This document shows positions 10,507-48,034 of a DNA stretch of 54,786 bases, in pieces; the stretch's first letter is position 1; the number at the start of each line of letters is the position of its first letter. The stretch lies in IMG/VR virus record IMGVR_UViG_3300043446_002312, positions 1-54,786 of that record; one strand, written 5' to 3'. Under the pieces are notes generated by a model. It ran no database searches, was not told where the DNA came from, and saw nothing but the letters and a program-made list of their open reading frames with translations. The stretch comes from a virus (lineage: Duplodnaviria > Caudoviricetes). The position numbers and the translations under genes were made by a program.

Positions 10507-10509
10507 GGT

Positions 10510-11589: not shown

Positions 11590-11597
11590 CAGCTTCC

Positions 11598-12020
11598 TCA
11601 GCTATAAAGGTTAGTACGAGGGTCGTTAGAGAACGGGTGAAAGTATTCGCTAACCCAGAACGAATAGGCATCTTGTGGAACTTCGATAACGTATCCGTCT
11701 AACTGTCGATACTTGCAGTTTTGCAGGTAATTTGCAGCCTGGCGGAGAGGCCATTCGTCCCTCCAGTTCACTTCCCATGAGTCGATTGTGATGAAAAAAC
11801 CGTCGACCGTGTAATCAATGCGACCAACGATTGGTCCGCCGCTTTGTTCTTCATCTGAGTACGGGGGATTACTATAGTCGAAGGATTCTGAGACTCGCTC
11901 GAAAACTTCGCCGTCCCACTTCACCAAAAGATACCGAAGCTGAACCGGGGGATCTTCGTAGTAAAGGAAATCTTGAAAGAGCCACGTGGGCGATTGAATA
12001 CTGGGACGACGAATTGCCAT
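11598..12020 (-). CDS. Hypothetical protein
   Basis: ATG at 12020 (MAIRRPS) just after the upstream stop. Confidence 0.65.
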   Translation of the reverse strand: MAIRRPSIQSPTWLFQDFLYYEDPPVQLRYLLVKWDGEVFERVSESFDYSNPPYSDEEQSGGPIVGRIDYTVDGFFITIDSWEVNWRDEWPLRQAANYLQNCKYRQLDGYVIEVPQDAYSFWVSEYFHPFSNDPRTNLYS

Positions 12021-34248: not shown

Positions 34249-34436
34249 CAGAGGGCTCGAGACATCGTGAAAGCTTGCTGAGGCGAGAAATACTCTGAGT
34301 TGTAAGCGCAGTGGACTGAGGAAGGGATTTCCCGTCCTTTCTTATCATAGGGAGTGACTAAATAGTAAACTCCGGCAATTCCAACCATGGTTTCCAGCGA
34401 AGCGGAGGCGACACGTGACTTGCGTGACTTTTTCAT
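34248..34436 (-). CDS. Hypothetical protein
   Basis: 62-aa ORF with ATGA overlap on the polymerase stop. Confidence 0.55.
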   Translation of the reverse strand: MKKSRKSRVASASLETMVGIAGVYYLVTPYDKKGREIPSSVHCAYNSEYFSPQQAFTMSRAL

Positions 34437-37228
34437 TTGATTAGGCCTTTCTTGATTGCGTTGAAGCGAGTGTGGAGCTTTTCGATCGCACCGATCTCAG
34501 AGAGTTCTTGCATCGAGTATTCCACGCCGGATGGCTCTTTGTCGCCACCAGGGTTAGACGGAGTGACGGTTTTTTCCTTGGGTGACTTGCGAATCCGGTT
34601 GTCGATTGCCACACTAGAGAAGTAAGCTCGCGACAGTGGGAGTTCAGGAATCCCAACTGCCGATTGAAACAAGGACCAGGTGTACATATGAGCGATTTGA
34701 AAGAGAACAGCGAACTGCTCTGCATAACGGTCTGGCGTCATAAACCAGATCTCGTCATGAATACTCAGAATGAACCGTGCCGGAATCTTATATTCCTTGG
34801 TGAGCCAGTGGATTGAGGTCAGGAAGATCGAAAGAATCTCGGCACCCGAAGATTGAATCGTCCAGTTGACTCGCCCGGTCTTGAAGTCGTCGCCCACAGC
34901 AGCTGGGCGCATCGCGGTCGAGATCTTGGTGCCCAGGCAAGGGAGCTGGGGCACACGAGTTCGCATTGCGATCTCTTCCATATAGTTGAAGCAACCGGAG
35001 TCCGAGCCACCTTCATACAGCCCTGACCGTTGTTTACCCTTCTTTCCCTCCAAGATTCGGTAGGCGAAGTTCTTCACCTCTGTTGGTGACTTCTCAGGGT
35101 ATTTGCGGCGAATGTAGGTCTGCACAGCACGGACACCAGCTCCGTACAGGACAGCGAAGCCGGCGATCTTAGCCGTATCCCGATCCACTCCAGCCAGCTT
35201 GGCGAGGGCGCTGTGTGGGTCCGTGCCTGCCTCCTTCGAGCCACTCAGAACGTTGTAACCAAAAGGTGAACAACCGACGTGACCGCCTTCCCACTTGTCA
35301 CTGTAGATTGAGGCAATCTGCATTTCCTGACCGTCAAAGTCTGCACCCACAATCTTCCAGCCATCTGGAGCTTTGACTCGCGTTTTGAGTTCAGTGCCGA
35401 TGCGCCAGTTCTTCGTGGAGCACATCGTAACCATCAGCGATTCCACAGTTCTGCGAGTAACTGTGCCATGGCAAAGAATCTCGGGCAGAGTAACCAGCGA
35501 GTCCTCACCGTAAGGGTTGTTGGCACGCAGGAAGATGCGGTCCATCACACGCTTGCGCACCGAAGTCCAGTAGGATACAGAGTTGGCAATCTCGAGTGCT
35601 CGTTTCGCCTCGGGGAGATCACTGCTGAGGCGACCAACCGCCATATCCTCGACGAAATCTTTACTCAGCACCCCGCCAACGTTGTCGCCATTTCCTTTCG
35701 GGTGTGGGATCTTCGTTAGGTTGCCATCCTCGTCGTGGTAGCACCACCCGTCATTCTTGGTGAAGATCATCGGGCTCCCCTCGTACTTGAGCTTCAGCAC
35801 TAGGTGAGCCAGGTTGGACTTCACACCAATATGCTGATTCTCGTCTTTGAGGAAAGGGCGAACCCAGTTCGGAATGTGGGCATATTTGCCTTTCGCAGAC
35901 TTGATTTCCCAGTCGAGCTGAGAAACCCACGGATCTTTGCGCACCCACTGCTGAGCCTTGGCAGGATCGTTGAGGTAGAGAACGCGCCAGTCCTCGTAAG
36001 TTTTCCACACCAGATCCTTACAGATCTGCGTCATTTCGTCGTTGTATTCCTTGTAGACGCGCTCAACATCCTCAATCCACTCCGACCAGTTATCCACAAG
36101 CGGAATGATCGAACCGTTCAGATGGTAGTGACCGCAGAGGGCAACCATCGAGGGAGTGCTATCCAAGTACTTTGGCCACAACGCCTGAAAGAGTTCGGCA
36201 GTGTAGTAAGCATCTTTCAGAGCGTAGTCAAGAGCCTCAGTTAGAACTTGGCGGATCTGAGAAAGATGGGTCGCATCAACGAAGATGTTACGGATCTTTT
36301 TATCCACTTCGCCCAGCTCTTTCACGTCCTCACCGAAATACTTTCGGACGGCTGCAACGTGGAAGTTGTAACACTGCACAAGGCTATTCGTGGCGCCTTT
36401 GTCTAGCCACTTCGGAGCATAGCGCAGTTTGCGCTTCTCTTCAGGCGTCAGACTCTCTGGGTCTTTTCCAGCAAGAACGTACAGCCAGCGTTGACCACGG
36501 GCCAATCCTGACACACCGATGTGAGCAGACAGTGTGTCAAAGTAAAAGTTTTCAGGAGTGGTTTGATCGAGCGTGTAACCCTCACGAGCACGAACACGGT
36601 CGTAGCTGATGTTGTGACCAGGAATGAAGCGGTTGGTTCCGATTGGAATCAGCTCGTGTTGATCCCATTCACTCTCGGGGAGAGTTGGATCAATTAGTTC
36701 GGAAGCTAGCCACACATACGCAGCCTTATCACTCAGAGCGGTTCCGATGATCGGAAACGCACCGCCGTGCACGTAGGTCTCGGTATCGAACGTGAACGCT
36801 TCCTCTTCAGGGAAATCAACTTTCTCGATGTACCATCCGCCAGCAGCGTCATTTTCAACCCACTCATACCGGGTCCAGCCGGATTCAAACCGGAACTCCT
36901 CAGGCGGGGGAAGCGGGGGCAGCTTGCAGCGAGAAAACTGATCGCCAAGCTCCTTATACCTGCCAACTTGATCGCTGGCAATCTTTTCGAAGTGATCGCG
37001 CAAAAAATCACCCTTCAAGTCTGGAAGCGGCAAAGGGCCATCATACAGACCTGCAGGGTGATCTACAGGAACAGAAATATCAAATTCTTTCAGCAGGTTT
37101 TCTGCTTTCTGAATGGACAGACGAGACATTTTCTGTGGCTTTTCTGTGCCAAAGATTTTGTCGTGCAGGTCGTCTGACAGAACGGGGTATCCAAGTTGTG
37201 TTTTCTTCACGGACGTTAGGTTTTTCAT
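34433..37228 (-). CDS. polA: Family A DNA polymerase, mitochondrial Pol gamma-like
   Basis: Exonuclease motifs FDTET, GHNISYDR, DTLSAHIGVSGL; polymerase motifs GTVTRRTVE, VGADFDGQE, RDTAKIAGFAVLYGAG, RVNWTIQSSG, SIHDEI, all closely paralleling POLG. Confidence 0.95.
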   Translation of the reverse strand: MKNLTSVKKTQLGYPVLSDDLHDKIFGTEKPQKMSRLSIQKAENLLKEFDISVPVDHPAGLYDGPLPLPDLKGDFLRDHFEKIASDQVGRYKELGDQFSRCKLPPLPPPEEFRFESGWTRYEWVENDAAGGWYIEKVDFPEEEAFTFDTETYVHGGAFPIIGTALSDKAAYVWLASELIDPTLPESEWDQHELIPIGTNRFIPGHNISYDRVRAREGYTLDQTTPENFYFDTLSAHIGVSGLARGQRWLYVLAGKDPESLTPEEKRKLRYAPKWLDKGATNSLVQCYNFHVAAVRKYFGEDVKELGEVDKKIRNIFVDATHLSQIRQVLTEALDYALKDAYYTAELFQALWPKYLDSTPSMVALCGHYHLNGSIIPLVDNWSEWIEDVERVYKEYNDEMTQICKDLVWKTYEDWRVLYLNDPAKAQQWVRKDPWVSQLDWEIKSAKGKYAHIPNWVRPFLKDENQHIGVKSNLAHLVLKLKYEGSPMIFTKNDGWCYHDEDGNLTKIPHPKGNGDNVGGVLSKDFVEDMAVGRLSSDLPEAKRALEIANSVSYWTSVRKRVMDRIFLRANNPYGEDSLVTLPEILCHGTVTRRTVESLMVTMCSTKNWRIGTELKTRVKAPDGWKIVGADFDGQEMQIASIYSDKWEGGHVGCSPFGYNVLSGSKEAGTDPHSALAKLAGVDRDTAKIAGFAVLYGAGVRAVQTYIRRKYPEKSPTEVKNFAYRILEGKKGKQRSGLYEGGSDSGCFNYMEEIAMRTRVPQLPCLGTKISTAMRPAAVGDDFKTGRVNWTIQSSGAEILSIFLTSIHWLTKEYKIPARFILSIHDEIWFMTPDRYAEQFAVLFQIAHMYTWSLFQSAVGIPELPLSRAYFSSVAIDNRIRKSPKEKTVTPSNPGGDKEPSGVEYSMQELSEIGAIEKLHTRFNAIKKGLIK

Positions 37229-37233
37229 GGCTT

Positions 37234-37270
37234 AGTATAGCTTTGTTACCTCGGCGGTAAACTCAGGGGT
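37234..37270 (-). promoter_or_regulatory. Sigma70-like promoter of the polymerase (near-leaderless) with a shared 14-bp element
   Basis: TTTACC-16-TATACT-5 nt-ATG; ACCCCTGAGTTTAC identical to 47409-47422. Confidence 0.6.
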
Positions 37271-37616
37271 TTACGTAGGCCAGGGTATCGATCGGCGGGG
37301 GCTCAGGGAATCCTGAGTATAGGGACGGGGTGATTGCCCTAACAGGGATTGCTCCAGCACCGTTCCAGGTGTTTGAGGGTCGCACAGGGAACCACCGGTA
37401 GATCGGTGTCCCGTTGTTGTACCCGTACACGCAAGGCTGAGCCATGAACGGGTTGCCAGCTTGCCAAGTGGGATCCGGTGGAACCTGTGTGTAATAATTC
37501 ACACTGTTGTTAGCCCAGCTTTTATAGAAGGGGGCAAGAACATTTCCAAGCAGATCTACATCCACAGTACCGGCATCAACTACGGCTTTCGCCATCTGAA
37601 CAGCACGAGGGTTCAT
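37263..37616 (-). CDS. Hypothetical Pro/aromatic-rich protein, possibly late/structural
   Basis: ATG at 37616 (MNPRAVQ), 24 nt below GGGTAAAA. Confidence 0.65.
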   Translation of the reverse strand: MNPRAVQMAKAVVDAGTVDVDLLGNVLAPFYKSWANNSVNYYTQVPPDPTWQAGNPFMAQPCVYGYNNGTPIYRWFPVRPSNTWNGAGAIPVRAITPSLYSGFPEPPPIDTLAYVNP

Positions 37617-37640
37617 ACAAATCCTATGACCATAGGTGTA

Positions 37641-37648
37641 TTTTACCC
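37641..37648 (-). promoter_or_regulatory. Putative late promoter GGGTAAAA
   Basis: 24 nt above ATG 37616. Confidence 0.65.
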
Positions 37649-37906
37649 TCAAAAGGTGCAGTCCCAGCAAAGTTTCCCGGGGTTTTCATCAAAGAGACCG
37701 AGATTTCGAGCTTCGTTGATTGCCTCCAGAACCTTCACATCGTTATTCAAACGTCGGTGAAGACGAAGACGCCACAGGGTGTATTCTCGGGCATTTCTGT
37801 CGGTAGGATCAGCGAGGTATTTCTGGTATTTGGTTTCGACTGTTTGAACAATGCCGATACCAACCTTCTCGATGAGGTGGTCAACTTTCTGAAGAGCCCG
37901 TGCCAT
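37649..37906 (-). CDS. Hypothetical protein
   Basis: 85-aa ORF coupled to the upstream gene. Confidence 0.65.
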   Translation of the reverse strand: MARALQKVDHLIEKVGIGIVQTVETKYQKYLADPTDRNAREYTLWRLRLHRRLNNDVKVLEAINEARNLGLFDENPGKLCWDCTF

Positions 37907-38712
37907 TAGTTTGCAGAATTGAAGGAGAACATTTTGAGCTCAAAGTTGCGAACACCGGAGCTTTCGTAGACGATATCTTTGTTCTTCTTGTAGATCTCGT
38001 AGGCGTCGAACACCGAAGAGAAGTGCAGCGGGCGATCAGCGGGGCTGCTTCGCCAAAGGAGCATTTCCTGAAGAGAGAGCGGCACATCGATGTCCCACTG
38101 TTCATCTCGCGAAGAGTACAGAAGTGGCAGAGCGTCATTCCGCCACCAGTCGCAGATCTGCGGGCTGTATTCATCCCAAGCCAGGGGATCTGTCAGGTGG
38201 GTGTCGCAAGTTTCTCGGATCCAGTTCACGTACTGGCGGCCACGCTCAACGACGAGATTGGCGCTCGTAGGAACTTCATCCAGAAAGTAAGCTTCCTCGT
38301 CGCCCCTAACAACCCGCTCGATAACTGCAGGGAATAGGAAGGATTCGGAGATAAGCCGGAAGTCTTCGGCACCCTCGCTAACGGAGCGCAAAACAACCTC
38401 AAGAATTGACATGGTGGTAGCAATCTGAAGTTCTTCGCCCGAAGCAGGAATCTTTGGTTTCTCGTTTGATAAACCTTTTCTCAAAAGGCTTAATTCTCTC
38501 TCAAGACGACGAACTTCTCTACCCATCTCCCGTTCAAGCTTGCTCTTGTAGATCTCGGACTGAGTAACTAAATTGTCAAATTTAGTATCAAGTTTTTCTA
38601 ACTCAGCGTCAAATTGCTCTACAGATATTTTGAGGTTGGATAGTTTCTTTTTGAGGGAAGTGACCGAGGAACGTATAGAGTTGGTTGCAAAAATTAAGTT
38701 GTCAGCAGTCAT
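37906..38712 (-). CDS. Hypothetical protein with N-terminal coiled coil
   Basis: 268-aa ORF with heptad repeats. Confidence 0.7.
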   Translation of the reverse strand: MTADNLIFATNSIRSSVTSLKKKLSNLKISVEQFDAELEKLDTKFDNLVTQSEIYKSKLEREMGREVRRLERELSLLRKGLSNEKPKIPASGEELQIATTMSILEVVLRSVSEGAEDFRLISESFLFPAVIERVVRGDEEAYFLDEVPTSANLVVERGRQYVNWIRETCDTHLTDPLAWDEYSPQICDWWRNDALPLLYSSRDEQWDIDVPLSLQEMLLWRSSPADRPLHFSSVFDAYEIYKKNKDIVYESSGVRNFELKMFSFNSAN

Positions 38713-39266
38713 CAGATCGGGCGAATCGTTGCTCTCAGTTGGTCTGTGTTGACGTCGATGACTTCAACGTTAAACGAGTATAGGCTCTCAGGGTCGCTCA
38801 GTAAATGGAAGCTTCCTTCAAACCGATCACCATCCCGGGAGCGCAGATAGAAGTTTCCGGGGGTAGGCGGGGAGCAGAGTGCAATATTACCTGCAAACTC
38901 GGGGTTGGATTCCTCGATCGCTGTAACAAGTCTCTGGTAGATTGCGGAGGCTGCCGCCATCTCACTATCATTTGAAAACTGAGCTCTCAGTTCGCCTTCG
39001 ATCGCTTCAAGGCTGGCTGCAATTCCGGTGTCAAGCACGATCTCGAAAGTCGCGCCTTCTTCCCGAGTCAGAAAACAAACTTCCTCAGAGTCAAAGTTTA
39101 AGTCATCCGGGTCTTCAAACGCTTGAAAACCATGCTCCAGAAGCTCGTAGAAGGTGTCTTTGATTGTTTCCGCGTCGGGACCGCCGAGGTAGTTGGCGAT
39201 GGCGTGGAAAATCCGAGGGTTGGCAAGCAAACGCGCCACCGGGTAAATCAGCTGTTGTTCGTTCAT
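38712..39266 (-). CDS. Hypothetical acidic protein
   Basis: 184-aa ORF; TATACT and GGGTAAAA upstream. Confidence 0.7.
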   Translation of the reverse strand: MNEQQLIYPVARLLANPRIFHAIANYLGGPDAETIKDTFYELLEHGFQAFEDPDDLNFDSEEVCFLTREEGATFEIVLDTGIAASLEAIEGELRAQFSNDSEMAAASAIYQRLVTAIEESNPEFAGNIALCSPPTPGNFYLRSRDGDRFEGSFHLLSDPESLYSFNVEVIDVNTDQLRATIRPI

Positions 39267-39324
39267 TACAGTGCTCCGCCGAAGCAGTATAGCGATCGCG
39301 TCGTTTGGTAATCGTTTAGCATTG

Positions 39325-39332
39325 TTTTACCC
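39325..39332 (-). promoter_or_regulatory. Putative late promoter GGGTAAAA
   Basis: Intergenic, after the gyrA stop. Confidence 0.6.
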
Positions 39333-39337
39333 GGCAT

Positions 39338-41332
39338 TCACAGTTTGACTTCTTCAAGGTTGGCCACCTTGATTCCTTTTGCTCCAGGGCGACCTTGCTT
39401 CACAGTGCTGATGCTAAGCTCCACCTTCTTCTTGCGCGGGGAAACCCAGGGCACGGGGTAAGAGCCTTCACCAAGGTATACAAACTCGGCTTCGGCAGGT
39501 AACCAGAGCTTCCCCTTGCTAGTTGCTTTGCACAGGTCTTCACCACTCAGCACAACAGCCTTAAGTTGATCTTCCAGTTTGAAGACACAGAGGTATTTCC
39601 GCTGAGAAACTTCAGCTTCCCGTTTCGCAAGAGCCACAGGACCGTAGCCCGTGGAGATTGGGCCCTTGAAAGTTGCCCCAACTTTCTTCAAGAAGCCATC
39701 ATGGGTCATTAAAACCAATTTTTCTTTCGCGTCGACGACCATTGCACCCCGTGGGCCCTTGGCCTGCTCAACAACACCCTTCTTCAAATCAATCTTCAGG
39801 AACCGGGGCCTAGGGGGGGCGGGGGGCCTCTTCTGCCCTGCCCTCGGGCTGGCGGCCACGCTTCCAGCCGGAGGCTCCACCAGGGCGCTCCTGCGGGCCT
39901 CACCGTGGCGTTTGGCGAGCTCAGTGATCTGTGTGTACACCCACTTCTGGCGCACCTCTTTGTTCTTTACCAGCTCGTCAAGGGTCTTCAGGCGGTCCTC
40001 CAAGGTTTGCTTCTCGGTTTCCAGTTCAGCCTGGTCAAGACCTGTGAGTTGACGAAGGCGCATCTCAAGGATTGCCTCGGCTTGATCTCGAGTGAACTTG
40101 AACGGGCGGTCCACAAGGGCAACCAGAGCCTCCTTCTTTGATGCCGACTCCTTGATCTTCTTGATGATCGCATCAATCTTGTTGATGGCTTTGATGAAGC
40201 CAATCACGATCTCAAGACGCTGCTCAGTAAGGTCTAGCTCTTGGGAGAACTTTCGCTCCAGGCGAGCCATTCGCCACGAGAACCATTTCTGACAAATTTC
40301 AACTGGGCTGAGCTCGACGGGTCGCGTACCGTCAATAACCAGCGTTTTTGCTGAATAACGAGTGTCGAGATCGGTGTATGCGTAGAGTTGCTCAACCAGC
40401 TGCTCAGTTCCAACATTGGGCTTCGCAACAATCGTGACGCGGTCTCCGGTGAGATCAGACTCGTCGATAACTTCTGCGATTCCATCGAGTTTTCCTTTCT
40501 CTAGAGCGTCACGAACTTGTTCACCGAGTTTCTCAGGGTTGACCCCAGGCGGGAAATGCGTGAATGTAATTGTGAGGCGATCTTTTGCCTTGCCGCTTCG
40601 TTTCTGTACGCCTGTCTCGTGCTTAGCGCGGCAGCGAATGTTGCCAGAGCCTGTTTCTTTGTACCTCTTGAGTTCTTCGTCATTGACAATGTCGCATCCA
40701 GTCGGAAAGTCGGGGATTAGGAGTTCGCGTGCTTTCGCCTCCTTTGGCGCTTTGAACTCGCACGCAAGTTTGGTGGCCTCTACAACTGCTCGCAGAGAGT
40801 GGGGAGCCAGCTTCGTTGAGAACCCCACGGCAATACCTGTGTCGCCATTCAGCAACACCGAAGGAATCGCAGTGTTAAACCGCTCTGCCTCCTGACGGGA
40901 TCCGTCGTAGTTCGGCCTCGTTTCCCAGGTGGCTTTGTCCTGCAGAAGCAATTCAACAGCGGAGGGTCGCAGTTTACACTCGGTATAGCGAGCGGCTGCA
41001 GGGCCGTCAACGGTGCTACCGAAGTTTCCGTGACCGTCAACCCACGGAACGTTGTTGTTCCAGGTTGTGGCCATGTTGACCAGAGTGCCGTAGCAATCGC
41101 CGTGCGGGTGGTAGTAACCCATCGCAAGGCCAGTTACGCGGGCGCACTTCACATAGCGTTTGTCTGGCATCAACCCTTCCTCAAACATCGTCTGAAGGAC
41201 GCGACGCTGGGCTGGTTTCAAACCGTCATACATGTCTGGGATGGCTCGCCCAAGAAGGACGGCCATCGAGTAAGCCATGTAATCCTCCTTCATTTGGGAG
41301 GTTAGATTGGTCGTTGTAAGGTTTTCCGTCAT
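39338..41332 (-). CDS. gyrA: Type IIA topoisomerase subunit A (GyrA/ParC-like)
   Basis: RAIPDMYDGLKPAQRR, KCARVTG, YHPHGD, GNFGS, AAARYTE (catalytic Tyr), PDFPTG, QAEAILEMRLRQLT; ATG at 41332. Confidence 0.93.
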   Translation of the reverse strand: MTENLTTTNLTSQMKEDYMAYSMAVLLGRAIPDMYDGLKPAQRRVLQTMFEEGLMPDKRYVKCARVTGLAMGYYHPHGDCYGTLVNMATTWNNNVPWVDGHGNFGSTVDGPAAARYTECKLRPSAVELLLQDKATWETRPNYDGSRQEAERFNTAIPSVLLNGDTGIAVGFSTKLAPHSLRAVVEATKLACEFKAPKEAKARELLIPDFPTGCDIVNDEELKRYKETGSGNIRCRAKHETGVQKRSGKAKDRLTITFTHFPPGVNPEKLGEQVRDALEKGKLDGIAEVIDESDLTGDRVTIVAKPNVGTEQLVEQLYAYTDLDTRYSAKTLVIDGTRPVELSPVEICQKWFSWRMARLERKFSQELDLTEQRLEIVIGFIKAINKIDAIIKKIKESASKKEALVALVDRPFKFTRDQAEAILEMRLRQLTGLDQAELETEKQTLEDRLKTLDELVKNKEVRQKWVYTQITELAKRHGEARRSALVEPPAGSVAASPRAGQKRPPAPPRPRFLKIDLKKGVVEQAKGPRGAMVVDAKEKLVLMTHDGFLKKVGATFKGPISTGYGPVALAKREAEVSQRKYLCVFKLEDQLKAVVLSGEDLCKATSKGKLWLPAEAEFVYLGEGSYPVPWVSPRKKKVELSISTVKQGRPGAKGIKVANLEEVKL

Positions 41333-41598
41333 TCGGCCTTCGGTAGAGAGCGAATTCGCTCGATCAAGGTGTCTACAGCGTCCACTGTGCAAAACCGAAT
41401 CACATCGTTGGTGATCTCAGTTTCGTACGTCAGGTGCGCGTGCTTGCCCTCATTATGGCTCAGGACGGCCACTTCGTAAAGCGCATTCTCGCCGATCTCG
41501 TATTCAGGGATAACAGAGATTCCGTAACCGTTGTCAAACAGCTCCTTATGCTGGAGTCCAAGAGGATGGGGGAAGAGTTTAAGATCTTCGAGTTTCAT
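41329..41598 (-). CDS. Small conserved-type phage protein (FDNGYGISVI...LYEVAVL)
   Basis: 89-aa ORF; motif seen in phage early ORFs. Confidence 0.75.
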   Translation of the reverse strand: MKLEDLKLFPHPLGLQHKELFDNGYGISVIPEYEIGENALYEVAVLSHNEGKHAHLTYETEITNDVIRFCTVDAVDTLIERIRSLPKAE

Positions 41599-42389: not shown

Positions 42390-42875
42390 TCACTCGTTAA
42401 CCAGCACAGCGTGCTTGTATTTATTGCGCAGGTTCAGTATGCGTGTTGCCATACCTTTTTGCCACGATTCACTTTGTGCTTCCCCTCTGCCAGCGTGACG
42501 TTTTGCCAACTCTTTCTCACTCACAGTGACAACAATTAACTCCATGTCGCCGTATTCAAACATAGCATCTAGGTTGGGATTGTTGCTCAAGCGTTCACCT
42601 TCTCCTAGTATAGTCCAGTCCGGGTGAGACTGCGACATTGAGGCCAACCACTCTCTGAATTTAGGACCTACACCTTTGCTCCACCTGTCTGTACCGCTAA
42701 AAACTTGCTCGTCGTATATGCCCAGCACGATTGTCTTCGATGTTTCAAATTTATGGTAAACCACCAAACCTTCTTTCACCAAGGTTGACTCACCTAGGGA
42801 CTTCATACGCTCACGCATCAAGGTGCTTTTACCAACCCCAGGACGTCCAATGTAGTACTGAATTTTCATGAACAT
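42390..42875 (-). CDS. P-loop kinase of DNA hypermodification (5-hydroxymethylpyrimidine DNA kinase-like)
   Basis: GRPGVGKST, FSGTDRWS, GEGERL; adjacent to the aGPT-PPlase gene. Confidence 0.75.
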   Translation of the reverse strand: MFMKIQYYIGRPGVGKSTLMRERMKSLGESTLVKEGLVVYHKFETSKTIVLGIYDEQVFSGTDRWSKGVGPKFREWLASMSQSHPDWTILGEGERLSNNPNLDAMFEYGDMELIVVTVSEKELAKRHAGRGEAQSESWQKGMATRILNLRNKYKHAVLVNE

Positions 42876-42984: not shown

Positions 42985-44028
42985 TTACCGAACCGGGTAG
43001 TGGAAAGTGCCAGAATCATGGAACAGAAACATTTTCTGTTTGTCCACGATAGCCCCCTCGGGAGCCAGTAGATCCCCTATTACCTCTTTTCGTGCCTGAT
43101 GCAAAACCTTCCACTCAATGCCTTGCCAACCGTCTTTCTCTGCTTGAGAGATTTCTTCTGACTGTCTATCCAGGTAATAACCCATGTACCGACCCTTCTT
43201 AGTCCGGAACAATTTTTTGTAGGAGCACAGGCAAGTTTCCAGAGAGAAGTTGTCTATGTGACTGGCCAGGTGTGGATGACGCATTTTGCTCTCTCGAAGC
43301 ACCTCCGCCCCAAATCCTTCCAACCAATCATACTCAGTTGCAGTAAGTTTCTGATTGACCCACTCGTCTTTGCCGGCTGCGAAGCACAAACCATTTCGGT
43401 GACTTTTGCTTCCTGAATAGTCGTTGAGGAAGAGTGTTGGACACTCCAAAGGTATGCCGCAGGTGTGCTTTAAAGTTTGTAGGTAAAAGAACGCCGTGTA
43501 CCTTCCAAACTTGTACCAGCTACCTTTGACAATGTTCCACAGTTTAGCAAAGTTTTCTTCTGGTGATCCTAAACAAATGGCGTTAAACTTGCTATACTGA
43601 CTGCGACCCCGAAGCCAATCCTGATAAGACTCATACATGGCAGGGAGGTGCCCCTTACTCCACTTCGTGTCGACTTGATATCGAAGGCGAGGGTAGTTTT
43701 CGTTATTCCACTTTGTAAACCTCTCAACAGAGGCCAATTCTTCATCGGGGAACTCTTGCTTGTAGACCCAAGCTGTGGGTAAGTTGTATGTGTGATACAG
43801 CCAAGCGAACCACAATTTTTCCTCGACGCTGTGCTCGTATCGCTGATTTAAATAGTTCATCAACCACAACGCAGGGTCGCAGTCTCCGTTCTCAACCGAC
43901 CAAGCGTACCATCGAATAAAACCTTCCCGCCTGTTCCCTAACTCACGGTAATCATGACCAACGTTCTCTTCATCTGCACGGGTAACATCAACCGCAGCGC
44001 CTCTGCTCACGTTATTCTCGAGGCCCAT
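42985..44028 (-). CDS. Alpha-glutamyl/putrescinyl thymine pyrophosphorylase-like protein (amino acid:DNA transferase family); start uncertain (44028/44040/44049)
   Basis: DYRE..NRREGFIRWY, GDCDPALW, EKLWFAWLY, YKFGRYTAFFYLQTL, SHRNGLC, LETCLCSYKK, RYMGYYLDRQ. Confidence 0.8.
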   Translation of the reverse strand: MGLENNVSRGAAVDVTRADEENVGHDYRELGNRREGFIRWYAWSVENGDCDPALWLMNYLNQRYEHSVEEKLWFAWLYHTYNLPTAWVYKQEFPDEELASVERFTKWNNENYPRLRYQVDTKWSKGHLPAMYESYQDWLRGRSQYSKFNAICLGSPEENFAKLWNIVKGSWYKFGRYTAFFYLQTLKHTCGIPLECPTLFLNDYSGSKSHRNGLCFAAGKDEWVNQKLTATEYDWLEGFGAEVLRESKMRHPHLASHIDNFSLETCLCSYKKLFRTKKGRYMGYYLDRQSEEISQAEKDGWQGIEWKVLHQARKEVIGDLLAPEGAIVDKQKMFLFHDSGTFHYPVR

Positions 44029-44361
44029 AGTTCTGCTCATAAAGTTCAATCATGTGGTACGGGTAAGGTGGCTCCTTCGCATCGTAAGATCCCGAGAAAA
44101 ATGCGAGAAGTTTTGGAGAATCTTGGATACTATCCGCACAACCATCGTTCCCAAGGCATATCGGCAGATTTGCTGGATTGGGCGGACGTCATCGTCTGCA
44201 TGGGCAATGTTCACGAAAAGTATATGACTGTGCACTACCCGCAGCACTGCCACAAAGTGACAAATTGGCTTGTAGATGACCCTCACTTTGCTGTTGGCAC
44301 AGAAAAACATTACTCCGTTGCCAAACAGATCGAAGAGCTCGTTCTCAGCCGATTTTGTTGA
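43954..44361 (+). CDS. Low-molecular-weight protein-tyrosine-phosphatase/ArsC-fold phosphatase
   Basis: VLFICTGNINRS (CX5RS P-loop), SCGT, HRSQ, WADVIVCM, DDPH general acid. Confidence 0.9.
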   Translation: MTNVLFICTGNINRSASAHVILEAHSSAHKVQSCGTGKVAPSHRKIPRKMREVLENLGYYPHNHRSQGISADLLDWADVIVCMGNVHEKYMTVHYPQHCHKVTNWLVDDPHFAVGTEKHYSVAKQIEELVLSRFC

Positions 44362-45283
44362 TCCACTCTTCAACTTGCTTCGCAGAGCATTGCTCTAGGT
44401 TCAAGTCTTTTCTCATGTTGTTTAACCGTTCTGTAACAACTTTGCGCGAGTTTTTATCAAAATTAGTATATTGATAACCAACCTCCATGCTGTGGTTGTA
44501 AGGCAAAAATGTCGGAAATTGGTAATTGTATGCATTCACTATCTCACTAGGTGGTGGATTATCCCAGACTCGAGTCATAAACTCAAACACCCAAACAAAG
44601 CAAGAAGTGATTTCAAAAGAGTCGAGGGTGTTAGTAAAGTGACGGAATTCCACCGTGTCTGTTTCTTTCAACTGCAGCAAATTGATACCTGCCCGTGTTG
44701 TCAAACCCCAGGCGGGTTCGCCATACTTGTCTTGAGGGGCGTGTGCAGCCAGGAACTCCTCTACCGATGCCGCGTTCAAAGCTCGCTCAACCCTGTCTCG
44801 AGGTACAGCATACTGGTGTGAAACTTTGCGGCGGCGGTAACGTTTCATCGCACCTTGGTACTCCTTTTTTGTTTCAAACTGGTCACGGCACGGAACGGGA
44901 ATCGGCTCAATTGCTTCATAAATTGCGTTCTGATTTTCATCAACATACCGCAGCAGAGTTTTCAACGCTTTCAGGTCTTCGGACAACCCTGGGACACGAA
45001 CATGCAAATGCAGGTTCGTACGGTAATTCAGTTGCGGCCCGATACCTGCAGCCATCAAAGCATCAAAGAAGTCGACTTGCTCTGCAATTGTTTCCGTCGG
45101 TCGTGAGTTAATTTCACCACCTTTTGTGTACAACAACCCTTTAGGGTCGTTGGCGATGCCCGTCGAACTCACGATCGAGTAATCTTTTTTGTTCCAACTT
45201 AGACCATCGGGCAGCTTTGCTTTGCGATCGATGTCACCGTACTCGTATTCCGCACCGAACGTAATTTTCTTGGGATCAATCAC
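44345..45283 (-). CDS. Amidoligase (COOH-NH2 ligase, glutamine-synthetase-like fold)
   Basis: TFGAEYE, GGEINSRP, NLHLHV, INL, TVEFRHF. Confidence 0.85.
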   Translation of the reverse strand: MIDPKKITFGAEYEYGDIDRKAKLPDGLSWNKKDYSIVSSTGIANDPKGLLYTKGGEINSRPTETIAEQVDFFDALMAAGIGPQLNYRTNLHLHVRVPGLSEDLKALKTLLRYVDENQNAIYEAIEPIPVPCRDQFETKKEYQGAMKRYRRRKVSHQYAVPRDRVERALNAASVEEFLAAHAPQDKYGEPAWGLTTRAGINLLQLKETDTVEFRHFTNTLDSFEITSCFVWVFEFMTRVWDNPPPSEIVNAYNYQFPTFLPYNHSMEVGYQYTNFDKNSRKVVTERLNNMRKDLNLEQCSAKQVEEWINKIG

Positions 45284-45942
45284 GGCACAAGCTCCTTAAC
45301 CTCAATAATTTTATGCAAAGTGTGGGGCCGATAAACGATTCCTGGCTCGCAGCGTTTTGCGCCTTGCAAGCCGGCCCTGCGAGCAATATCTGCTGTACTA
45401 CAGATAAACCACCCGTTCTCAACTTTGACCTGATAGAGAGGGCGTTTCCCGTTACGGTACCAAGCCAAACCTTCTTTCGCATGCAGTTCGGTCACGGCCA
45501 TGCTTGCTTCAGAGAATTCTTCAAGGGGTTGCTTACCTACATGCCGCGCTTGGTACAGCAATTCAGAGTCGTTACACGTGGTTAGTTCGTAACCGTATTC
45601 TTCCCAGTATACTGGGCTCCTTTGATCTACCACCCCGTTATGAGCTATTGCCAGGTCGTCAAAAACCTGGATTGGTTGGTTATATTCGAGGTCGGAAGTT
45701 GAGTAGCGAGTGTGCCCGATCAGTTGCAAAAGGTGGTCGCCTGGTTGAACCTCCGCAAAGTGCATTCGAATAAACCACTCAGCCGAGATTGGCGCCTTGC
45801 GAGTAATGACCTTGTTGTTTTGAACTAACGAATAGCCCGTTGCATGCTTACCTCGAATGCGAGACTCATAGAATAAACGCTTGAGCGTTTCGATTTGTTG
45901 TCGAGAGGGGCTCTCAAGATAAGCCCCGACGATGCCACACAT
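45280..45942 (-). CDS. Class II (Ntn) glutamine amidotransferase
   Basis: MCGIVG N-terminal Cys, RGKHATG, GHTRYST, AHNG, DSE, RNGKRPL. Confidence 0.9.
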   Translation of the reverse strand: MCGIVGAYLESPSRQQIETLKRLFYESRIRGKHATGYSLVQNNKVITRKAPISAEWFIRMHFAEVQPGDHLLQLIGHTRYSTSDLEYNQPIQVFDDLAIAHNGVVDQRSPVYWEEYGYELTTCNDSELLYQARHVGKQPLEEFSEASMAVTELHAKEGLAWYRNGKRPLYQVKVENGWFICSTADIARRAGLQGAKRCEPGIVYRPHTLHKIIEVKELVP

Positions 45943-47366
45943 TAGTTTTCGGTATACCAGTAGTTCGTTCGAGAAGCTTGCGGACAGTGCCTAGCCCGGT
46001 ACTCGTCCCACTCATCACTTACCCACATGGAAGGGAAGACACCACTAAATTTGCCACCGTCATTTTTACGGTAGCGGTCTTCATACTGCTTTTGAGAGTA
46101 AGCGATGAACTCTTTGCGGCAGCACTCAGCTTGATAATCGTCGAGCTTAGCCATGCCATCACGGGCGTAGAACACCAGTACAACACTCTCAGCGGTTCCG
46201 GTTTTATCTACAAACTCGGTCTGCCCATGCACTCGGTTGCAGTTGTCTCCTACGAAGAAATCCCCATGACGAAGGTTAAAGGCTAAACGGAACTCTCCCA
46301 TAACAAAATACTGGCCGTCATACTTCTCTCCATCGTGTTTTTCGTTGGTGATGTTCGTTAGAACAGCAACACCGCGAGGGTTGTTCTTACCGTCCAGGTG
46401 CCAAAAGGTGGAGAAATTGTGGTTGATTGTAATAGTCGAGAAAGTTTTAGTTCCCAGAAGGGTGTAACGATCATCCTTACAATCTTTCATCACATTGTGG
46501 ATGTAATTCCACTCCTCCGGCATTGTTTCTTTGTACAAGTCGGATGCTTGCTGATACAACGCTTGATGAGCAACAAAATCATCATAGCGTTTTTGGGTGG
46601 TGGCAGACAGCCTTCCAAAAGGGTTCCGAGCAGAGCGATCCATGAACCCCAGGATGTTACTGTAGACTTTGTTTGCCCTGGTTTGAATGCTTACAAAGTT
46701 TTTATAGGACTTAGCTGCATAAGCGATCTGATCCTCAGCAGTTGCCCACAACTCCAACCAATTGTCAAACCACTCTTGACGCAGCTGATCCCGTTCAGCC
46801 AAGACTGCTTCTTTTTCAGCCTGTGGGGTTTTCTTCTTGCGGGCAATAGATTCCAGTTCAAGAATCCGGTCTTTGTTGACCAGTCCGGAATCTAAAATCT
46901 TTTTAACGTACAGTGAAAACCGTGCGAAGCCGGTGTGCTTGGAGACGAGGTCCTGGGCCTCCTGCAGCGTCGTGATGTTACCCTTGGCTGCTTCCCGGAA
47001 GAAAGCCACTTGGCCATTGGTCAGGCGGGCAGAGGTGTCTGTAGTGAGCTCTTTACCCCCTACCAGGCCTCGTTGGTCAGAGTAGAGATCTTTGCTGACC
47101 CATTTCCAGAAGTTATAACTTTCAGAGTTTGCCTCAATTTTAGTGACTTCGGAGAGAGCACTCTTCAAGAATACAATTGCCCTCTTACCGTTCAAGTATA
47201 CGATTGTATTTCCGTCGATAACTCGATCGTAGTCCTCTTCGGTAGGACGATCCCCGAGACGCTCTTTCTCGAAGGGGAACATTTCGTCAAATTCTATAAC
47301 CTCGCACTCGTAACTTCCAGTACAAGTTTGAATGGTTTCTGTCTTGGTCAAAGTGGATGTGGCCAT
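45942..47366 (-). CDS. TET/JBP-like Fe(II) dioxygenase (atypical co-substrate site)
   Basis: SNILGFMDR, FSTITINHNF, HLD...VHG iron triad, LVFYAR; SD GAGAGG before ATG 47366. Confidence 0.8.
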   Translation of the reverse strand: MATSTLTKTETIQTCTGSYECEVIEFDEMFPFEKERLGDRPTEEDYDRVIDGNTIVYLNGKRAIVFLKSALSEVTKIEANSESYNFWKWVSKDLYSDQRGLVGGKELTTDTSARLTNGQVAFFREAAKGNITTLQEAQDLVSKHTGFARFSLYVKKILDSGLVNKDRILELESIARKKKTPQAEKEAVLAERDQLRQEWFDNWLELWATAEDQIAYAAKSYKNFVSIQTRANKVYSNILGFMDRSARNPFGRLSATTQKRYDDFVAHQALYQQASDLYKETMPEEWNYIHNVMKDCKDDRYTLLGTKTFSTITINHNFSTFWHLDGKNNPRGVAVLTNITNEKHDGEKYDGQYFVMGEFRLAFNLRHGDFFVGDNCNRVHGQTEFVDKTGTAESVVLVFYARDGMAKLDDYQAECCRKEFIAYSQKQYEDRYRKNDGGKFSGVFPSMWVSDEWDEYRARHCPQASRTNYWYTEN

Positions 47367-47385
47367 GGTTCCTCTCGTTTTGGTA

Positions 47386-47432
47386 AGCATAGACTAGGCG
47401 CCACCGGTGTAAACTCAGGGGTGGCCCTGAGT
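47386..47432 (-). promoter_or_regulatory. Hairpin plus sigma70-like promoter upstream of the modification operon
   Basis: ACTCAGGG-CCAC-CCCTGAGT 8-bp stem overlapping TTTACA-16-TATGCT. Confidence 0.6.
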
Positions 47433-48034
47433 CACTGGTGGTACTCGTACTTGGTATCAAACGCAGCTCGAATTATAGACTGGAGTCTGCGGGCCATGTC
47501 CAGGTCTTTGCCACAGTAGATTGTAGTCTTGAGCAAGTCGCTGTAGACTTCGGGCTCGTCTTTGGTGACGGGGACGTCGTAGAAGTTGACTCGGTAGGCC
47601 ACACCCAAGTCTGCACACTTGGCGTTGATTCGGCTTGCTTCTGCAATGAAGTTGGGGCCATGGCCCTTGATTCCGTCGTCACGATTCGTTTGATCAAGGT
47701 AAGCGTGAACCATTTCGTGCAGCAGCGTGCTGCGAACCTGAATCGGGTCGTCAGCACACCTCCGGGCGATCTTGATTTCACCCGTCCCACGGTTGTTCAG
47801 TTTATATGTTCCCCATTTCGTTTTATAGCGACCTTCCCACTTCAGCGTCGGGTATTTCCTCCACGTTTCCCCGTTCTCGTCTACACGCTCGATTACTCGA
47901 AGAACTCGAAGATTTCCGTCGAAATACTTCGCATTGAATTCGGCATACAGCTCACCGAGATCAAACATTACAGTTGGATCGGGGCAGAACCGCTTGAAGA
48001 ATTTGTTAGAAACAGTTGTTTTGAATTCGGTCAT
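47432..48034 (-). CDS. SprT-like Zn metalloprotease
   Basis: LYAEFNAKYFDG, STLLHEMVH, GHGPNF. Confidence 0.85.
   Translation of the reverse strand: MTEFKTTVSNKFFKRFCPDPTVMFDLGELYAEFNAKYFDGNLRVLRVIERVDENGETWRKYPTLKWEGRYKTKWGTYKLNNRGTGEIKIARRCADDPIQVRSTLLHEMVHAYLDQTNRDDGIKGHGPNFIAEASRINAKCADLGVAYRVNFYDVPVTKDEPEVYSDLLKTTIYCGKDLDMARRLQSIIRAAFDTKYEYHQ

Follow-up and report, generated by a model that had tools for sequence, protein, structure and literature searches.

Clade-wide replacement of the arginine clamp motif for 2-oxoglutarate in phage TET/JBP-family dioxygenases

The dioxygenase gene and its product

The window considered here is the whole stretch of viral DNA that was analysed, which at 54,786 nucleotides represents only about 25% of a genome of roughly 200 kb. 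At 45942..47390 on the minus strand it carries a gene, designated P0001, which is assigned to the TET/JBP (5mYOX) family of dioxygenases by its open reading frame, its Pfam and PHROG matches and its fold, and whose 482-amino-acid product contains all three of the sequence strings quoted in a preliminary description of the locus. With the Pfam Tet_JBP profile (PF12851), for which the cut-off is 34.9 bits, the product scores 53.9 bits, its residues 267-410 covering positions 28-163 of the 164 in the profile; a six-frame search of the window finds Tet_JBP at 56.5 bits, and PHROG 24024 matches the product at E 6e-43. The AlphaFold model of P0001, which has an overall pLDDT of 85.3, aligns in VIA-align with NgTET1 (Z 19.4, rmsd 3.7, 242 aligned), TET2 (Z 18.8), CMD1 (Z 18.2) and CcTet (Z 17.4), while the next tier, which consists of AlkB-like folds and other 2-oxoglutarate (2OG) oxygenases, reaches Z values of at most 12.2. 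CMD1 is also among the top structural matches in Foldseek (E 1.5e-07). P0001 is a member of the TET/JBP family, and its double-stranded beta-helix is closest to the solved TET-family structures. A phmmer search of P0001 against PDB sequences gave no match at E<=10, no JBP chain occurs among the matches of the PDB sequence searches, and when 8 kb of the window was compared with cultured phages by megablast there was no match either. The protein has an insertion of about 160 amino acids where the phage enzymes that have been tested carry their “variable insertion”, and its E422-C-C424-R425 segment is followed by 57 further family-conserved residues, which form a C-terminal extension past the last conserved Cys.

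The gene neighbourhood

Immediately upstream of the dioxygenase lies a gene for a SprT-like metalloprotease (47432..48034, minus strand; Pfam SprT-like, 48.7 bits), which adjoins the dioxygenase in loci L001-3, L006, L051, L052 and L060 as well. On the other side is a gene for a class-II (N-terminal Cys) glutamine amidotransferase of 220 amino acids (45280..45942, minus strand; Pfam GATase_6, 34.6 bits against 27), which gives weak NCBIfam matches to the purF, asnB and glmS N-domains and is syntenic in L001-3, L051, L052 and L055. It is followed by a gene for an amidoligase-like protein of 312 amino acids (44345..45283, minus strand), which is syntenic in related loci; this protein has no Pfam, PHROG or NCBIfam match, and its ESM Atlas feature score of 0.96 to Amidoligase_2 clusters is a lead only. 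An ORF for a low-molecular-weight phosphatase or ArsC-like protein lies on the opposite strand (43954..44361, plus strand; Pfam LMWPc, 59.6 bits) and has counterparts of 44-96% identity in L001-3 and L051. Beyond it are the genes for the amino acid:DNA transferase (ADDT or AADT, formerly aGPT-Pplase; 42985..44049, minus strand; Pfam PF18724, 73.5 bits against 26.2) and for P-loop nucleotide kinase 3 (42390..42875, minus strand; Pfam PF18751, 44.6 bits against 27), likely a kinase for 5-hydroxymethyluracil (5hmU) in DNA to judge from the published pathways (PMC8989533, PMC13229309). The TTG start listed for the ADDT gene overlaps the phosphatase ORF, and the true start may be further downstream.

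The amidotransferase, kinase and transferase genes all lie within 3.6 kb downstream of P0001, in an arrangement that is syntenic in related loci. When 17 loci that encode a dioxygenase with the remodelled pocket described below were searched by tblastn (E<=1e-5), ADDT was found in 13 of them (the window, L001-5, L007, L051, L053, L055, L058, L062 and L063), and P-loop kinase 3 occurs in 10 of the 17. Across the loci only these two genes recur, and no gene for supplying an unusual 2-oxo acid is common to all. Clusters that combine a TET_JBP gene with a kinase, an AADT and a GATase or amidoligase have been described as 5hmU pathways that operate in situ (PMC8989533, PMC13229309). The substrate and product of P0001 can be read from this context: most likely it hydroxylates thymine in DNA to 5hmU. 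The window and five related contigs were also searched for further genes. The thymidylate-synthase-like hydroxymethylase profile PF00303 and the ParB profile PF02195 each matched in 0 of these 6 records, which says little about the whole genomes, since all 6 are fragments of 11-30% completeness and a more distant ParB gene is possible. A second Tet_JBP gene was likewise seen neither in the window nor in the five contigs.

Replacement of the Arg-x-Ser motif on the last strand

Few features are nearly universal in this enzyme superfamily, and among them is the Arg (or Lys) by which the distal carboxylate of 2OG is clamped. The preliminary description, which was concerned with positions 46160-46430 (residues 321-410 of P0001), had claimed that the enzyme keeps its HxD...H iron triad, that TET/JBP enzymes normally read R-x-S-x-V-x-Y on the last strand, and that S-V-V stands here at the R-x-S positions, so that the 2OG-binding Arg appears to be lost. 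Each of these points is borne out. The iron ligands are H331 and D333 of the segment H331-L-D333 (46392..46400, minus strand, with the codon of H331 at 46398-46400 and that of D333 at 46392-46394) and H388 (46227..46229, minus strand), and all three, like N323, occur in every one of the 385 aligned rows. Canonical rows (n=130) have, at the positions of the last-strand motif, R in 100%, S in 87% or T in 12%, V in 96% and Y in 97%.

Two profiles aligned by HMMER to human TET2 chains set the register of the last strand, and each places the family pattern xxIvLVFYaR on the TET2 segment T-R-I-S-L-V-F-Y-Q-H; the family profile A1 alone gives only E 1.1, and the broad profile A3 was needed to reach E 6.9e-08. 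With the TET2 numbering of PMC7854593, S402 is equivalent to Arg1896, V404 to Ser1898, Y408 to Tyr1902 and R410 to His1904. Residues 402-408 form a strand in the AlphaFold model (block pLDDT 92). On this alignment the Arg-x-Ser that clamps the C5-carboxylate of 2OG at the start of the last strand is replaced in P0001 by S402-V403-V404 (46179..46187, minus strand). The segment Y408-A-R410 (46161..46169, minus strand; Y408 at 46167-46169 and R410 at 46161-46163) follows, and its alignment with TET2 and CMD1 suggests that Y408 is the aromatic residue that stacks on the base and that R410 contacts the base or the DNA. R410 was considered as a 2OG-binding Arg displaced by a shift in register and was rejected, because it aligns with TET2 His1904 and CMD1 Arg418, both of which are base or DNA contacts, and because it is also present where R-x-S is kept (126 of 130 canonical rows).

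The other end of the co-substrate site seems to be intact. R260 (46611..46613, minus strand) is invariant in 385 of 385 rows, alongside invariant R252 and R255, and is taken here to be the Arg that stacks on the base and forms a pair with the C1-carboxylate of the 2-oxo acid. The phage TETs share an Arg equivalent to R1261 of TET2 and R224 of NgTET1 (Burke 2021, PMC8256090); the segment around R260 lies outside the span of the TET2 alignments, so its identification with this Arg is presumptive.

Distribution and covariation of the altered pocket

The alignment comprises 385 relatives, of which 212 rows form one clade and 173 lie outside it. Position 402 is a residue other than Arg in 204 of the 212 clade rows as against 1 of the 173 outside rows, the sole exception outside (P0146) appearing to be truncated, and R-x-[S/T] is read in 169 of the 173. 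To judge from the aligned sequences, this pattern of Arg loss is far beyond chance and belongs to a whole diversified clade, rather than being an oddity of a single sequence. The clade sample contains at least 211 distinct clusters at 90% identity; in FastTree the clade receives modest SH-like values, 93 in the tree of 161 rows and 79 in that of 385.

The loss of the Arg is accompanied by changes elsewhere in the pocket: Ser404 gives way to V, I, F, W, M or T, the Asn at two positions beyond the second His gives way to Q, M, I or E (Q390 in P0001; 46221..46223, minus strand), and Leu362 in the pocket wall gives way to Phe (46305..46307, minus strand). In the subclade to which the window belongs (n=65), position 402 is N in 51 rows and S in 14, position 404 is V, I, F or T, and Q390 and F362 are both present in all 65. 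In the sister subclade (n=139), position 402 is N in 66 rows, S in 58, A in 7 and C in 7, with one other non-Arg residue; position 404 is M, T, W or V, with W in 41; position 390 is M in 87, Q in 38 and I in 13; and F362 is present in 137. The nearest canonical kin, which have the same architecture of 470-500 amino acids (n=44), have R402 in 44, S or T at 404 in 43, N390 in 44 and L362 in 41, and N390 is found in 126 of 130 other canonical rows, whereas F362 occurs in 209 of 211 clade rows. The residue at 402 is still polar (N or S) in 189 of the 204 clade rows without Arg, which is compatible with hydrogen bonding to a carboxylate. The 7 clade rows that keep R402 all pair it with E390, which could neutralise the retained Arg in those sequences. 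The iron triad, R260, T321, N323, V406, Y408 and R or K at 410 are kept in essentially all 211 clade rows, down to 31-40% identity.

Candidate basic residues for a relocated clamp

Two basic residues that distinguish the clade are candidates for having taken over the charge of the clamp. The first, R204 (46779..46781, minus strand), lies in a clade-specific insertion helix, and K or R is present at this position in 205 of 211 clade rows as against 0 of the 44 nearest canonical kin, which have Leu in 35. R204 precedes the invariant W207 and F208 by three and four residues, and from helical periodicity it would be expected on the packed face of the insertion helix. The second, R268 (46587..46589, minus strand), lies 8 residues after R260 in a part of the alignment (250-275) that is free of gaps; K or R is present in 196 of the 204 clade rows without R402 as against 0 of the 7 clade rows that keep it, and the position is N, H, K or D in the kin. 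The loss of R402 and the gain of K/R268 coincide on two branches, and this holds under either reading of the tree. His249 of CMD1, which is five positions past the equivalent Arg, contacts the co-substrate (PMC7854593), so that the segment around 268 can line the pocket. The preliminary description had named another Arg or Lys in the 2OG pocket as an observation that would tell against its claim, and K/R204 and K/R268 may be residues of this kind.

These candidates are nearly but not completely universal: 8 clade rows have neither R402 nor K/R268, 6 have no K/R204, and in one cluster, P0390, none of the positions 204, 268, 339, 396 and 402 is basic. Three other basic residues were considered and set aside. 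R339 is confined to the window's subclade, the 120 sister rows compared having N, D or G and only 6 having K, and from the direction of the strand it would be expected where the barrel opens toward the DNA. K396 is found in only 18 of the 120 sister rows, so it cannot be a general substitute, and R374 is not specific to the loss, since Arg is present there in 39 of the 44 canonical kin also.

Comparison with characterized enzymes

The closest characterized systems are the phage T-dioxygenases of 5mYOX clades C1 and C2, such as 5mYOX97 and 5mYOX176 (O'Toole et al. 2026, PMC13229309). They belong to the same Pfam family as P0001 and share with it the N-terminal beta region, a D-R-x-x-R-x-P-x-x-R segment and the core T-x-T-x-N...H-x-D...H...V-x-Y-x-R. 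The partners of P0001 (GATase, P-loop kinase and AADT) are those given for clade C1, and a C-terminal extension after the conserved Cys is likewise common to P0001 and clade C1 (PMC13229309). The tested enzymes, however, read R-[MI]-S-L-V-x-Y-x-R and H-[GC]-N in Dataset S11 of that study, where P0001 has S-V-V-L-V-F-Y-A-R and H-G-Q, and clade C1 is described there as ParB-dependent, in contrast to the 0 of 6 fragmentary P0001-type records in which PF02195 was detected. None of six family motifs of the present clade occurs in Dataset S11 (PMC13229309), and the clade therefore appears to lie outside the enzymes tested in that work. All of the phage TETs aligned by Burke et al. 2021 conserve the clamp Arg (PMC8256090), and in the article texts searched no clade of phage TET/JBP enzymes is said to be without it, nor is the present clade mentioned in the two key papers.

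Among cultured phages, four of the six distinct phages with a homologue were checked (S-CBWM1, C48C1, Cr30 and DLP_6; HTVC112P and P12024L were left out), and all four enzymes are canonical. The protein gp8 of Synechococcus phage S-CBWM1, which is annotated as a “putative SNF2 DNA repair protein”, is 35% identical to P0001 over 95% of the length. Canonical kin of this type share with P0001 the same insertion helix with its W-F-x-x-W, and N336 is common to both, but they keep E-R-V-S, H-[GA]-N, L362 and L204, which P0001 does not. The neighbours of the S-CBWM1 dioxygenase are sugar-nucleotide genes rather than ADDT and the kinase, and canonical kin often occur in tandem pairs, whereas P0001 is single in the window.

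The preliminary description had also drawn a parallel with CMD1 of Chlamydomonas, a vitamin-C-dependent 5mC glyceryl transferase (PDB 7CY4-7CY8). Both proteins have the TET fold and keep the HxD...H triad, and neither has a canonical working basic clamp for the C5-carboxylate; the aromatic-x-Arg pair that contacts the base, F416/R418 in CMD1 (PMC7854593), corresponds to Y408/R410. The parallel is sound in that CMD1 has a blocked site and uses another co-substrate, but it is loose, because the aligned Arg410 of CMD1 is kept in the sequence and merely points away, while Trp358 fills the site and excludes 2OG (PMC7854593). In P0001 the Arg is itself replaced (S402), and the bulky residues of the clade are at 404 on the last strand, whereas Trp358 is on strand III. 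Phe371 of CMD1 is a vitamin-C pocket residue and Thr399 contacts the co-substrate (PMC7854593); F362, whose spacing from the second His is equal, would correspond to Phe371, and Q390 lies as far from the second His as Thr399 does. The substrate of CMD1 is 5mC and its reaction makes a C-C bond, whereas the gene context of P0001 calls for a hydroxymethyl product. TET2 and NgTET1, which have the fold and the iron triad in common with P0001, bind 2OG by two Arg residues (R1261 and R1896 in TET2, R224 and R289 in NgTET1; PMC7854593), of which P0001 would have only the first, as R260; T321 and Y408 of P0001 align with the TET2 segments T-A-C-L-D-F and L-V-F-Y.

Discussion

The proposed explanation for these observations is that P0001 is a TET/JBP-fold 5-methylpyrimidine dioxygenase which would hydroxylate thymine in replicated phage DNA to 5-hydroxymethyluracil, after which the neighbouring P-loop kinase would phosphorylate the 5hmU, the amino acid:DNA transferase would substitute the phosphorylated base, and further elaboration would fall to the amidoligase-like protein and the glutamine amidotransferase. 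In the clade as a whole the far end of the co-substrate pocket has been rebuilt, with the strand-VIII Arg-x-Ser gone, Asn replaced (here by Gln) and Leu replaced by Phe, while the iron triad and the putative Arg for the 2-oxo-acid head group are retained. K/R204 on the insertion helix and K/R268 appear to have been gained at the same evolutionary point as the clamp was lost, and they may have taken over its charge. The positive charge that faces the distal carboxylate would thus be relocated and not abolished, provided that K/R204 or K/R268 reaches the pocket, and 2OG, or a close dicarboxylic 2-oxo acid, would still be decarboxylated through non-canonical binding. That 2OG is still used but is bound differently from the canonical clamp is considered to have an even chance of being correct. 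Three features of the alignment tell against a relocated clamp: the 7 clade rows with R402 combine it with a possibly neutralising E390, the bulkier and less polar wall (W, M, F, I or V at 404, F362 and M390) is what would be expected if the distal site were closing, and some clade rows are without K/R268 or K/R204, P0390 having no candidate at all. Since all of the contigs are fragments, 11-30% complete, the rest of the genome may also encode a dUMP hydroxymethylase or another dioxygenase, of the canonical type.

A possible but tentative alternative keeps the fold, the substrate and the product (5hmU) and supposes that the co-substrate is no longer 2OG, the distal carboxylate site having been closed. 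The co-substrate would then be a shorter or uncharged 2-oxo acid, such as pyruvate, 2-oxobutyrate, a branched-chain 2-oxo acid or 2-oxoglutaramate, which would be chelated by the retained head-group site of R260 and the iron triad. Four pocket positions change in concert, each to side chains that are larger or less polar. W404 is present in 41 of 139 sister rows and A or C at 402 in 7 rows each, and the E390 that accompanies every retained R402 may be an internal salt-bridge plug. P0390 dispenses with every candidate basic residue, CMD1 is a precedent for a TET fold with a blocked C5-carboxylate site and another co-substrate, and neutral drift is not an adequate account of the loss, given that 172 of the 173 rows outside the clade have the Arg. 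On the other hand, the appearance of K/R204 and K/R268 exactly when R402 goes fits a relocated clamp, position 402 remains polar in most rows, and the genes that recur across the loci are ADDT and the kinase, with no common gene for supplying an unusual 2-oxo acid. We also know of no natural DNA dioxygenase that uses a 2-oxo acid other than 2OG.

Two further explanations depart from the expected product or from catalysis altogether. It is very improbable that the enzyme uses a co-substrate that is not a 2-oxo acid, as CMD1 does, and adds a group to the thymine methyl or oxidises a later intermediate so that the product is not 5hmU. The loss of the canonical clamp, the high rank of CMD1 among the structural matches and the similar placement of F362 and Phe371 are consistent with such chemistry, but R260 and N323, on the head-group side of the 2-oxo-acid site, are invariant, CMD1 keeps its Arg and blocks the site by other means, and ascorbate is uncommon as a metabolite of bacteria. 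A hydroxymethyl product is favoured, moreover, by how tightly and deeply the enzyme is linked to the P-loop kinase and ADDT: since the clade enzymes adjoin the two genes of a published route that requires 5hmU, the product can be argued to be 5hmU still. The suggestion in the preliminary description that the output of the whole pathway would be changed is for this reason unlikely, and its broader proposal of a non-2OG co-substrate or different chemistry is supported in part, by the clade-wide disappearance of the clamp with the iron triad kept. It is likewise very improbable that P0001 is a catalytically weak or inert paralogue which binds DNA or metal as a partner, targeting subunit or regulator, and that the 5hmU comes from a canonical dioxygenase or a dUMP hydroxymethylase whose gene lies in another part of a genome of about 200 kb. 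Only about a quarter of that genome is in the window, and kin phages have tandem canonical dioxygenases, a pair being present in each of G006 (277 kb, 98% complete), G007 and G009. Pairs of remodelled and canonical enzymes whose longest contigs are of the same size (P0013/P0345, 59925; P0039/P0346, 38148; P0251/P0361, 50665; P0035/P0370, 14080) hint that the two types can share one contig. The conservation of the catalytic core across 211 diverse rows would, however, be unexpected for a dead enzyme, it is the remodelled enzyme and no canonical one that adjoins ADDT and the kinase, and the window and each of the 5 related contigs have one Tet_JBP gene only.

The clade has dismantled the canonical 2OG clamp, yet it keeps all the other catalytic residues and heads a thymidine-hypermodification gene cluster. 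If the clamp has moved to a new structural element, the clade would be a natural example of the re-engineering of a 2OG site. If instead the co-substrate has changed, the chemistry would be new among enzymes that modify DNA, and it might provide an orthogonal tool with which to label 5hmU or 5hmC. The more specific form of the latter proposal, in which a clade of phage thymine hydroxylases has closed the pocket for the tail of 2-oxoglutarate and runs on a short or uncharged 2-oxo acid, is put forward as a conjecture about which we are doubtful; if true, these would be the first natural nucleic-acid dioxygenases of the TET/JBP fold to hydroxylate without 2OG, and the hypermodification of phage DNA would be uncoupled from the 2OG pool of the host.

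Loss of the last-strand arginine

The open reading frame at 45942..47390 (minus strand) encodes a 482-residue TET/JBP-family dioxygenase (P0001) and contains all three strings quoted in the preliminary description, whose interval (46160..46430) corresponds to residues 321-410. The protein matches Pfam Tet_JBP with 53.9 bits (cut-off 34.9), residues 267-410 lying on profile positions 28-163/164, and a further match is to PHROG 24024, whose function is unknown. An AlphaFold2 model built from an input of 42 relatives (mean pLDDT 85.3) places residues 402-408 in a strand. Foldseek matches the model to CcTet, CMD1, NgTET1 and TET2 (E 1e-07 to 9e-06), and VIA-align gives Z 19.4 for NgTET1 (rmsd 3.7, 242 aligned), 18.8 for TET2 and 18.2 for CMD1, with a runner-up tier of AlkB-like and other 2-oxoglutarate (2OG) oxygenases at Z <=12.2.

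The C1- and C5-carboxyl groups of a 2OG analogue are held by Arg1261 and Arg1896 in TET2 and by Arg224 and Arg289 in NgTET1 (PMC7854593). The last strand of the P0001 family is paired with the strand T-R-I-S-L-V-F-Y-Q-H of human TET2 chains in two HMMER alignments; that of the family profile is non-significant (E 1.1), and that of a broad profile built from 92 diverse relatives gives the same register with E 6.9e-08. In the numbering of PMC7854593, S402 falls on Arg1896, V404 on Ser1898, Y408 on Tyr1902 and R410 on His1904, which confirms the earlier claim that the canonical arginine is gone from this strand. R410 was considered as the displaced 2OG arginine and rejected: the aligned TET2 residues Tyr1902 and His1904, equivalent to CMD1 Phe416 and Arg418, contact the flipped base (PMC7854593), so the invariant R410 is, by alignment, a base or DNA contact. 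Of 130 canonical relatives, 126 have it alongside R-x-S.

The arginine is present in the phage thymine dioxygenases that have been tested, 5mYOX97 (G-R-M-S-L-V-F-Y-L-R) and 5mYOX176 (K-R-I-S-L-V-M-Y-Y-R), compared by eye from Dataset S11 of PMC13229309. According to Burke et al. 2021 (PMC8256090), it is likewise conserved in every phage TET of their alignment. None of six N-terminal and mid-protein motifs typical of the P0001 family occurs in that dataset, so that the clade to which P0001 belongs, as far as the dataset goes, seems to be untested in print; the words “arginine”, “Arg” and “2OG-binding” are absent from the main text of the same paper (O'Toole et al. 2026). Six distinct cultured phages carry a homologue, and all four of those checked are canonical. 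The homologues of S-CBWM1 (gp8), Cr30 and DLP_6 carry the GenBank label “SNF2 DNA repair protein”, which looks like a propagated misannotation, since these proteins match Tet_JBP.

Extent of the loss and co-varying pocket positions

The relatives examined comprised 401 proteins from four sources: 72 close relatives, the best 150 of 1077 profile-search matches over 1.84 billion representatives, the 120 top-ranking of 163 proteins related to the sister cluster P0074, and 88 related to the canonical kin protein P0076. In the family-HMM alignment 385 of the 401 rows span the domain, the other 16 being left out for having no position 402 or fewer than 150 filled columns; H331, D333, H388, R260 and N323 occur in 385 of 385. 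A FastTree phylogeny was built with the trait columns removed, and the smallest clade containing both P0001 and P0074 comprises 212 rows, with SH-like support of 79 in the 385-row tree and 93 with 161 rows. Position 402 is not arginine in 204 of these 212 rows; seven read R-V-[I/V], and one, P0082 on a long branch, is canonical. Outside the clade (173 rows), 169 read R-x-[S/T], three read R-x-[A/V], and one, the apparently truncated P0146, lacks the arginine. The loss first noticed in a single protein is thus clade-wide, a stronger result than the preliminary description could have known.

Positions 402, 404, 390 and 362 shift in concert. In the 44 canonical kin, which share the same architecture of 470-500 residues, they are R (44), S/T (43), N (44) and L (41). 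The window's own subclade (65 rows) has N (51) or S (14) at 402, V, I, F or T at 404, Q at 390 (65) and F at 362 (65), and its arginine-keeping sister (seven rows) has R at 402, I or V at 404, E at 390 and F at 362, the first, third and fourth in all seven. The large sister subclade (139 rows) has N (66), S (58), A (7), C (7) or another non-Arg residue (1) at 402, M (44), T (42), W (41) or V (8) at 404, M (87), Q (38) or I (13) at 390, and F at 362 (137). The co-substrate pocket of CMD1 is lined by Thr399, two residues after the second histidine, and by Phe371 (PMC7854593), and F362 and Phe371 stand equally far from the second histidine; by this homology, positions 390 and 362 would form part of the pocket wall. 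A small sub-lineage, P0390 together with the protein of locus L058, has A-I-W at 402-404, H-G-M after the second histidine, Q204 and N268 (Q268 in L058). On sequence its pocket is the most extreme, with no candidate cation at the positions examined, and the sub-lineage is a good test case.

Candidate replacements and the co-substrate

Every alignment column was scanned for lysine or arginine gained within the clade. Three residues were rejected as general substitutes: R339, found only in the window's subclade; K396, present in at least 90% of the window's close family but, of 120 sister rows examined, in only 18; and R374, which is also arginine in 39 of the 44 canonical kin. At position 204, K/R occurs in 205 of 211 clade rows (the 212 minus P0082) but in none of the 44 kin, 35 of which have leucine; the position lies in an insertion helix, three and four residues ahead of the invariant W207 and F208, a periodicity which suggests that it faces the protein core. 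Position 268 lies eight residues past R260, where the alignment is free of gaps; of the 204 clade rows without R402, 196 have K/R there, and all seven clade rows with R402 have asparagine. Over all rows of one column scan, the two-by-two table of R402 against position 268 reads 181/8/13/126. The coupling is suggestive rather than proof, because the tree reduces these counts to about two coupled events.

Since K/R204 and K/R268 appear exactly as R402 goes, and 402 stays polar, we lean towards a relocated clamp with 2OG still in use, a reading to which we would give an even chance. A plain relocation has against it the eight clade rows with neither R402 nor K/R268, the six without K/R204, and P0390, in which positions 204, 268, 339, 396 and 402 are all non-basic. 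The absence of any candidate cation from some members favours instead a serious rival, that the tail pocket is closed and another co-substrate is used, as do the bulkier wall residues and the pairing of E390 with R402 in the arginine-keeping rows; we consider it possible, if rather doubtful. That the enzyme is an inert paralogue seems very unlikely, and the CMD1-like chemistry envisaged in the preliminary description is, if anything, more so. The analogy drawn there with CMD1 calls for correction: the 2OG site of CMD1 is blocked by Trp358, and CMD1 keeps its arginine in sequence (PMC7854593), whereas that of P0001 is replaced by S402.

Genomic context and predicted product

The window, the entire record, represents about 25% of a genome (CheckV), implying some 200 kb. 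The rest of it is given over to phage structural and replication genes on the minus strand (7118-32015 and 34433-41392). These encode a terminase, PhoH, baseplate J and three Mu-related proteins (a Mu-type portal, a Mu gp36-like protein and a Mu-like prophage protease), as well as a GyrA/ParC-like topoisomerase subunit and a family-A DNA polymerase whose exonuclease domain is of the mitochondrial type. Neither a thymidylate-synthase-like gene, a ParB gene nor a second Tet_JBP gene was found in the window or in five related contigs, all six records being fragments 11-30% complete. Tandem pairs of canonical dioxygenases are frequent among kin phages, as in G006 (277 kb, 98% complete), G007 and G009. 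These paralogues lie about 1.7 kb apart (also L022-L028, L033 and L037) and are of two types, G-D-N-Q...H-G-N-T-A-M and G-D-T-Q...H-G-N-S-P-M, both with canonical R-V-S. Four remodelled proteins (those that have lost the clamp) and four canonical kin proteins have matching “longest contig” values (59925, 38148, 50665 and 14080), so both types may co-exist in some single genomes.

Directly upstream of the dioxygenase lies a SprT-like metalloprotease gene with an H-E-x-x-H motif (47432-48034, minus strand), which adjoins it also in L001-L003, L006, L051, L052 and L060, and thus in remodelled loci as well as in the canonical-kin locus L006 (49% identity). Its product may be functionally tied to the dioxygenase, or it may guard against DNA-protein crosslinks arising from oxidised bases. 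Downstream, on the same strand, are genes for a class-II glutamine amidotransferase (45280-45942), an amidoligase-like protein (44345-45283; unmatched in Pfam, with an ESM Atlas value of 0.96 to Amidoligase_2 clusters as a lead only), an amino acid:DNA transferase (ADDT; 42985-44049; PF18724, 73.5 bits) and a P-loop kinase 3 (42390-42875). Between the amidoligase-like and ADDT genes, and overlapping both, is a plus-strand ORF resembling a low-molecular-weight phosphatase or ArsC (43954-44361); it is probably a real gene, because it is kept in L001-3 and L051 at 44-96% identity, and ADDT then probably starts further downstream than the listed TTG (44049). L051 has two tandem amidoligase-like genes (10091-11877; 33% and 48% identity to the single one of the window).

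The motif can be read in 17 remodelled loci (the window, L001-5, L007, L050-55, L058, L059, L062 and L063, with L004/L053 and L005/L007 apparent duplicates). By tblastn, 13 of the 17 contain ADDT, the exceptions being four contigs of 2.0-6.2 kb, and 10 contain the kinase; the linkage of the remodelled enzyme with ADDT persists down to 32-41% identity. In L005 (5209-6357, plus strand) and L007, of the sister clade, two ORFs without any family assignment and a gene resembling myo-inositol-1-phosphate synthase (Pfam Inos-1-P_synth, 80.9 bits) separate ADDT from the kinase; this hints that a different group is attached to thymine there.

This type of cluster and its predicted role are already known from published descriptions. 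Lee et al. 2021 (PMC8989533) report contigs with TET_JBP, 5hmU DNA kinase, aGPT-Pplase (the former name of ADDT), amidoligase and glutaminotransferase but without dUMP hydroxymethylase, for which in-situ conversion of T to 5hmU was proposed, and O'Toole et al. 2026 (PMC13229309) link their clade C1 with GATase, P-loop kinase and AADT. The gene context argues that the product of the dioxygenase is still 5hmU.
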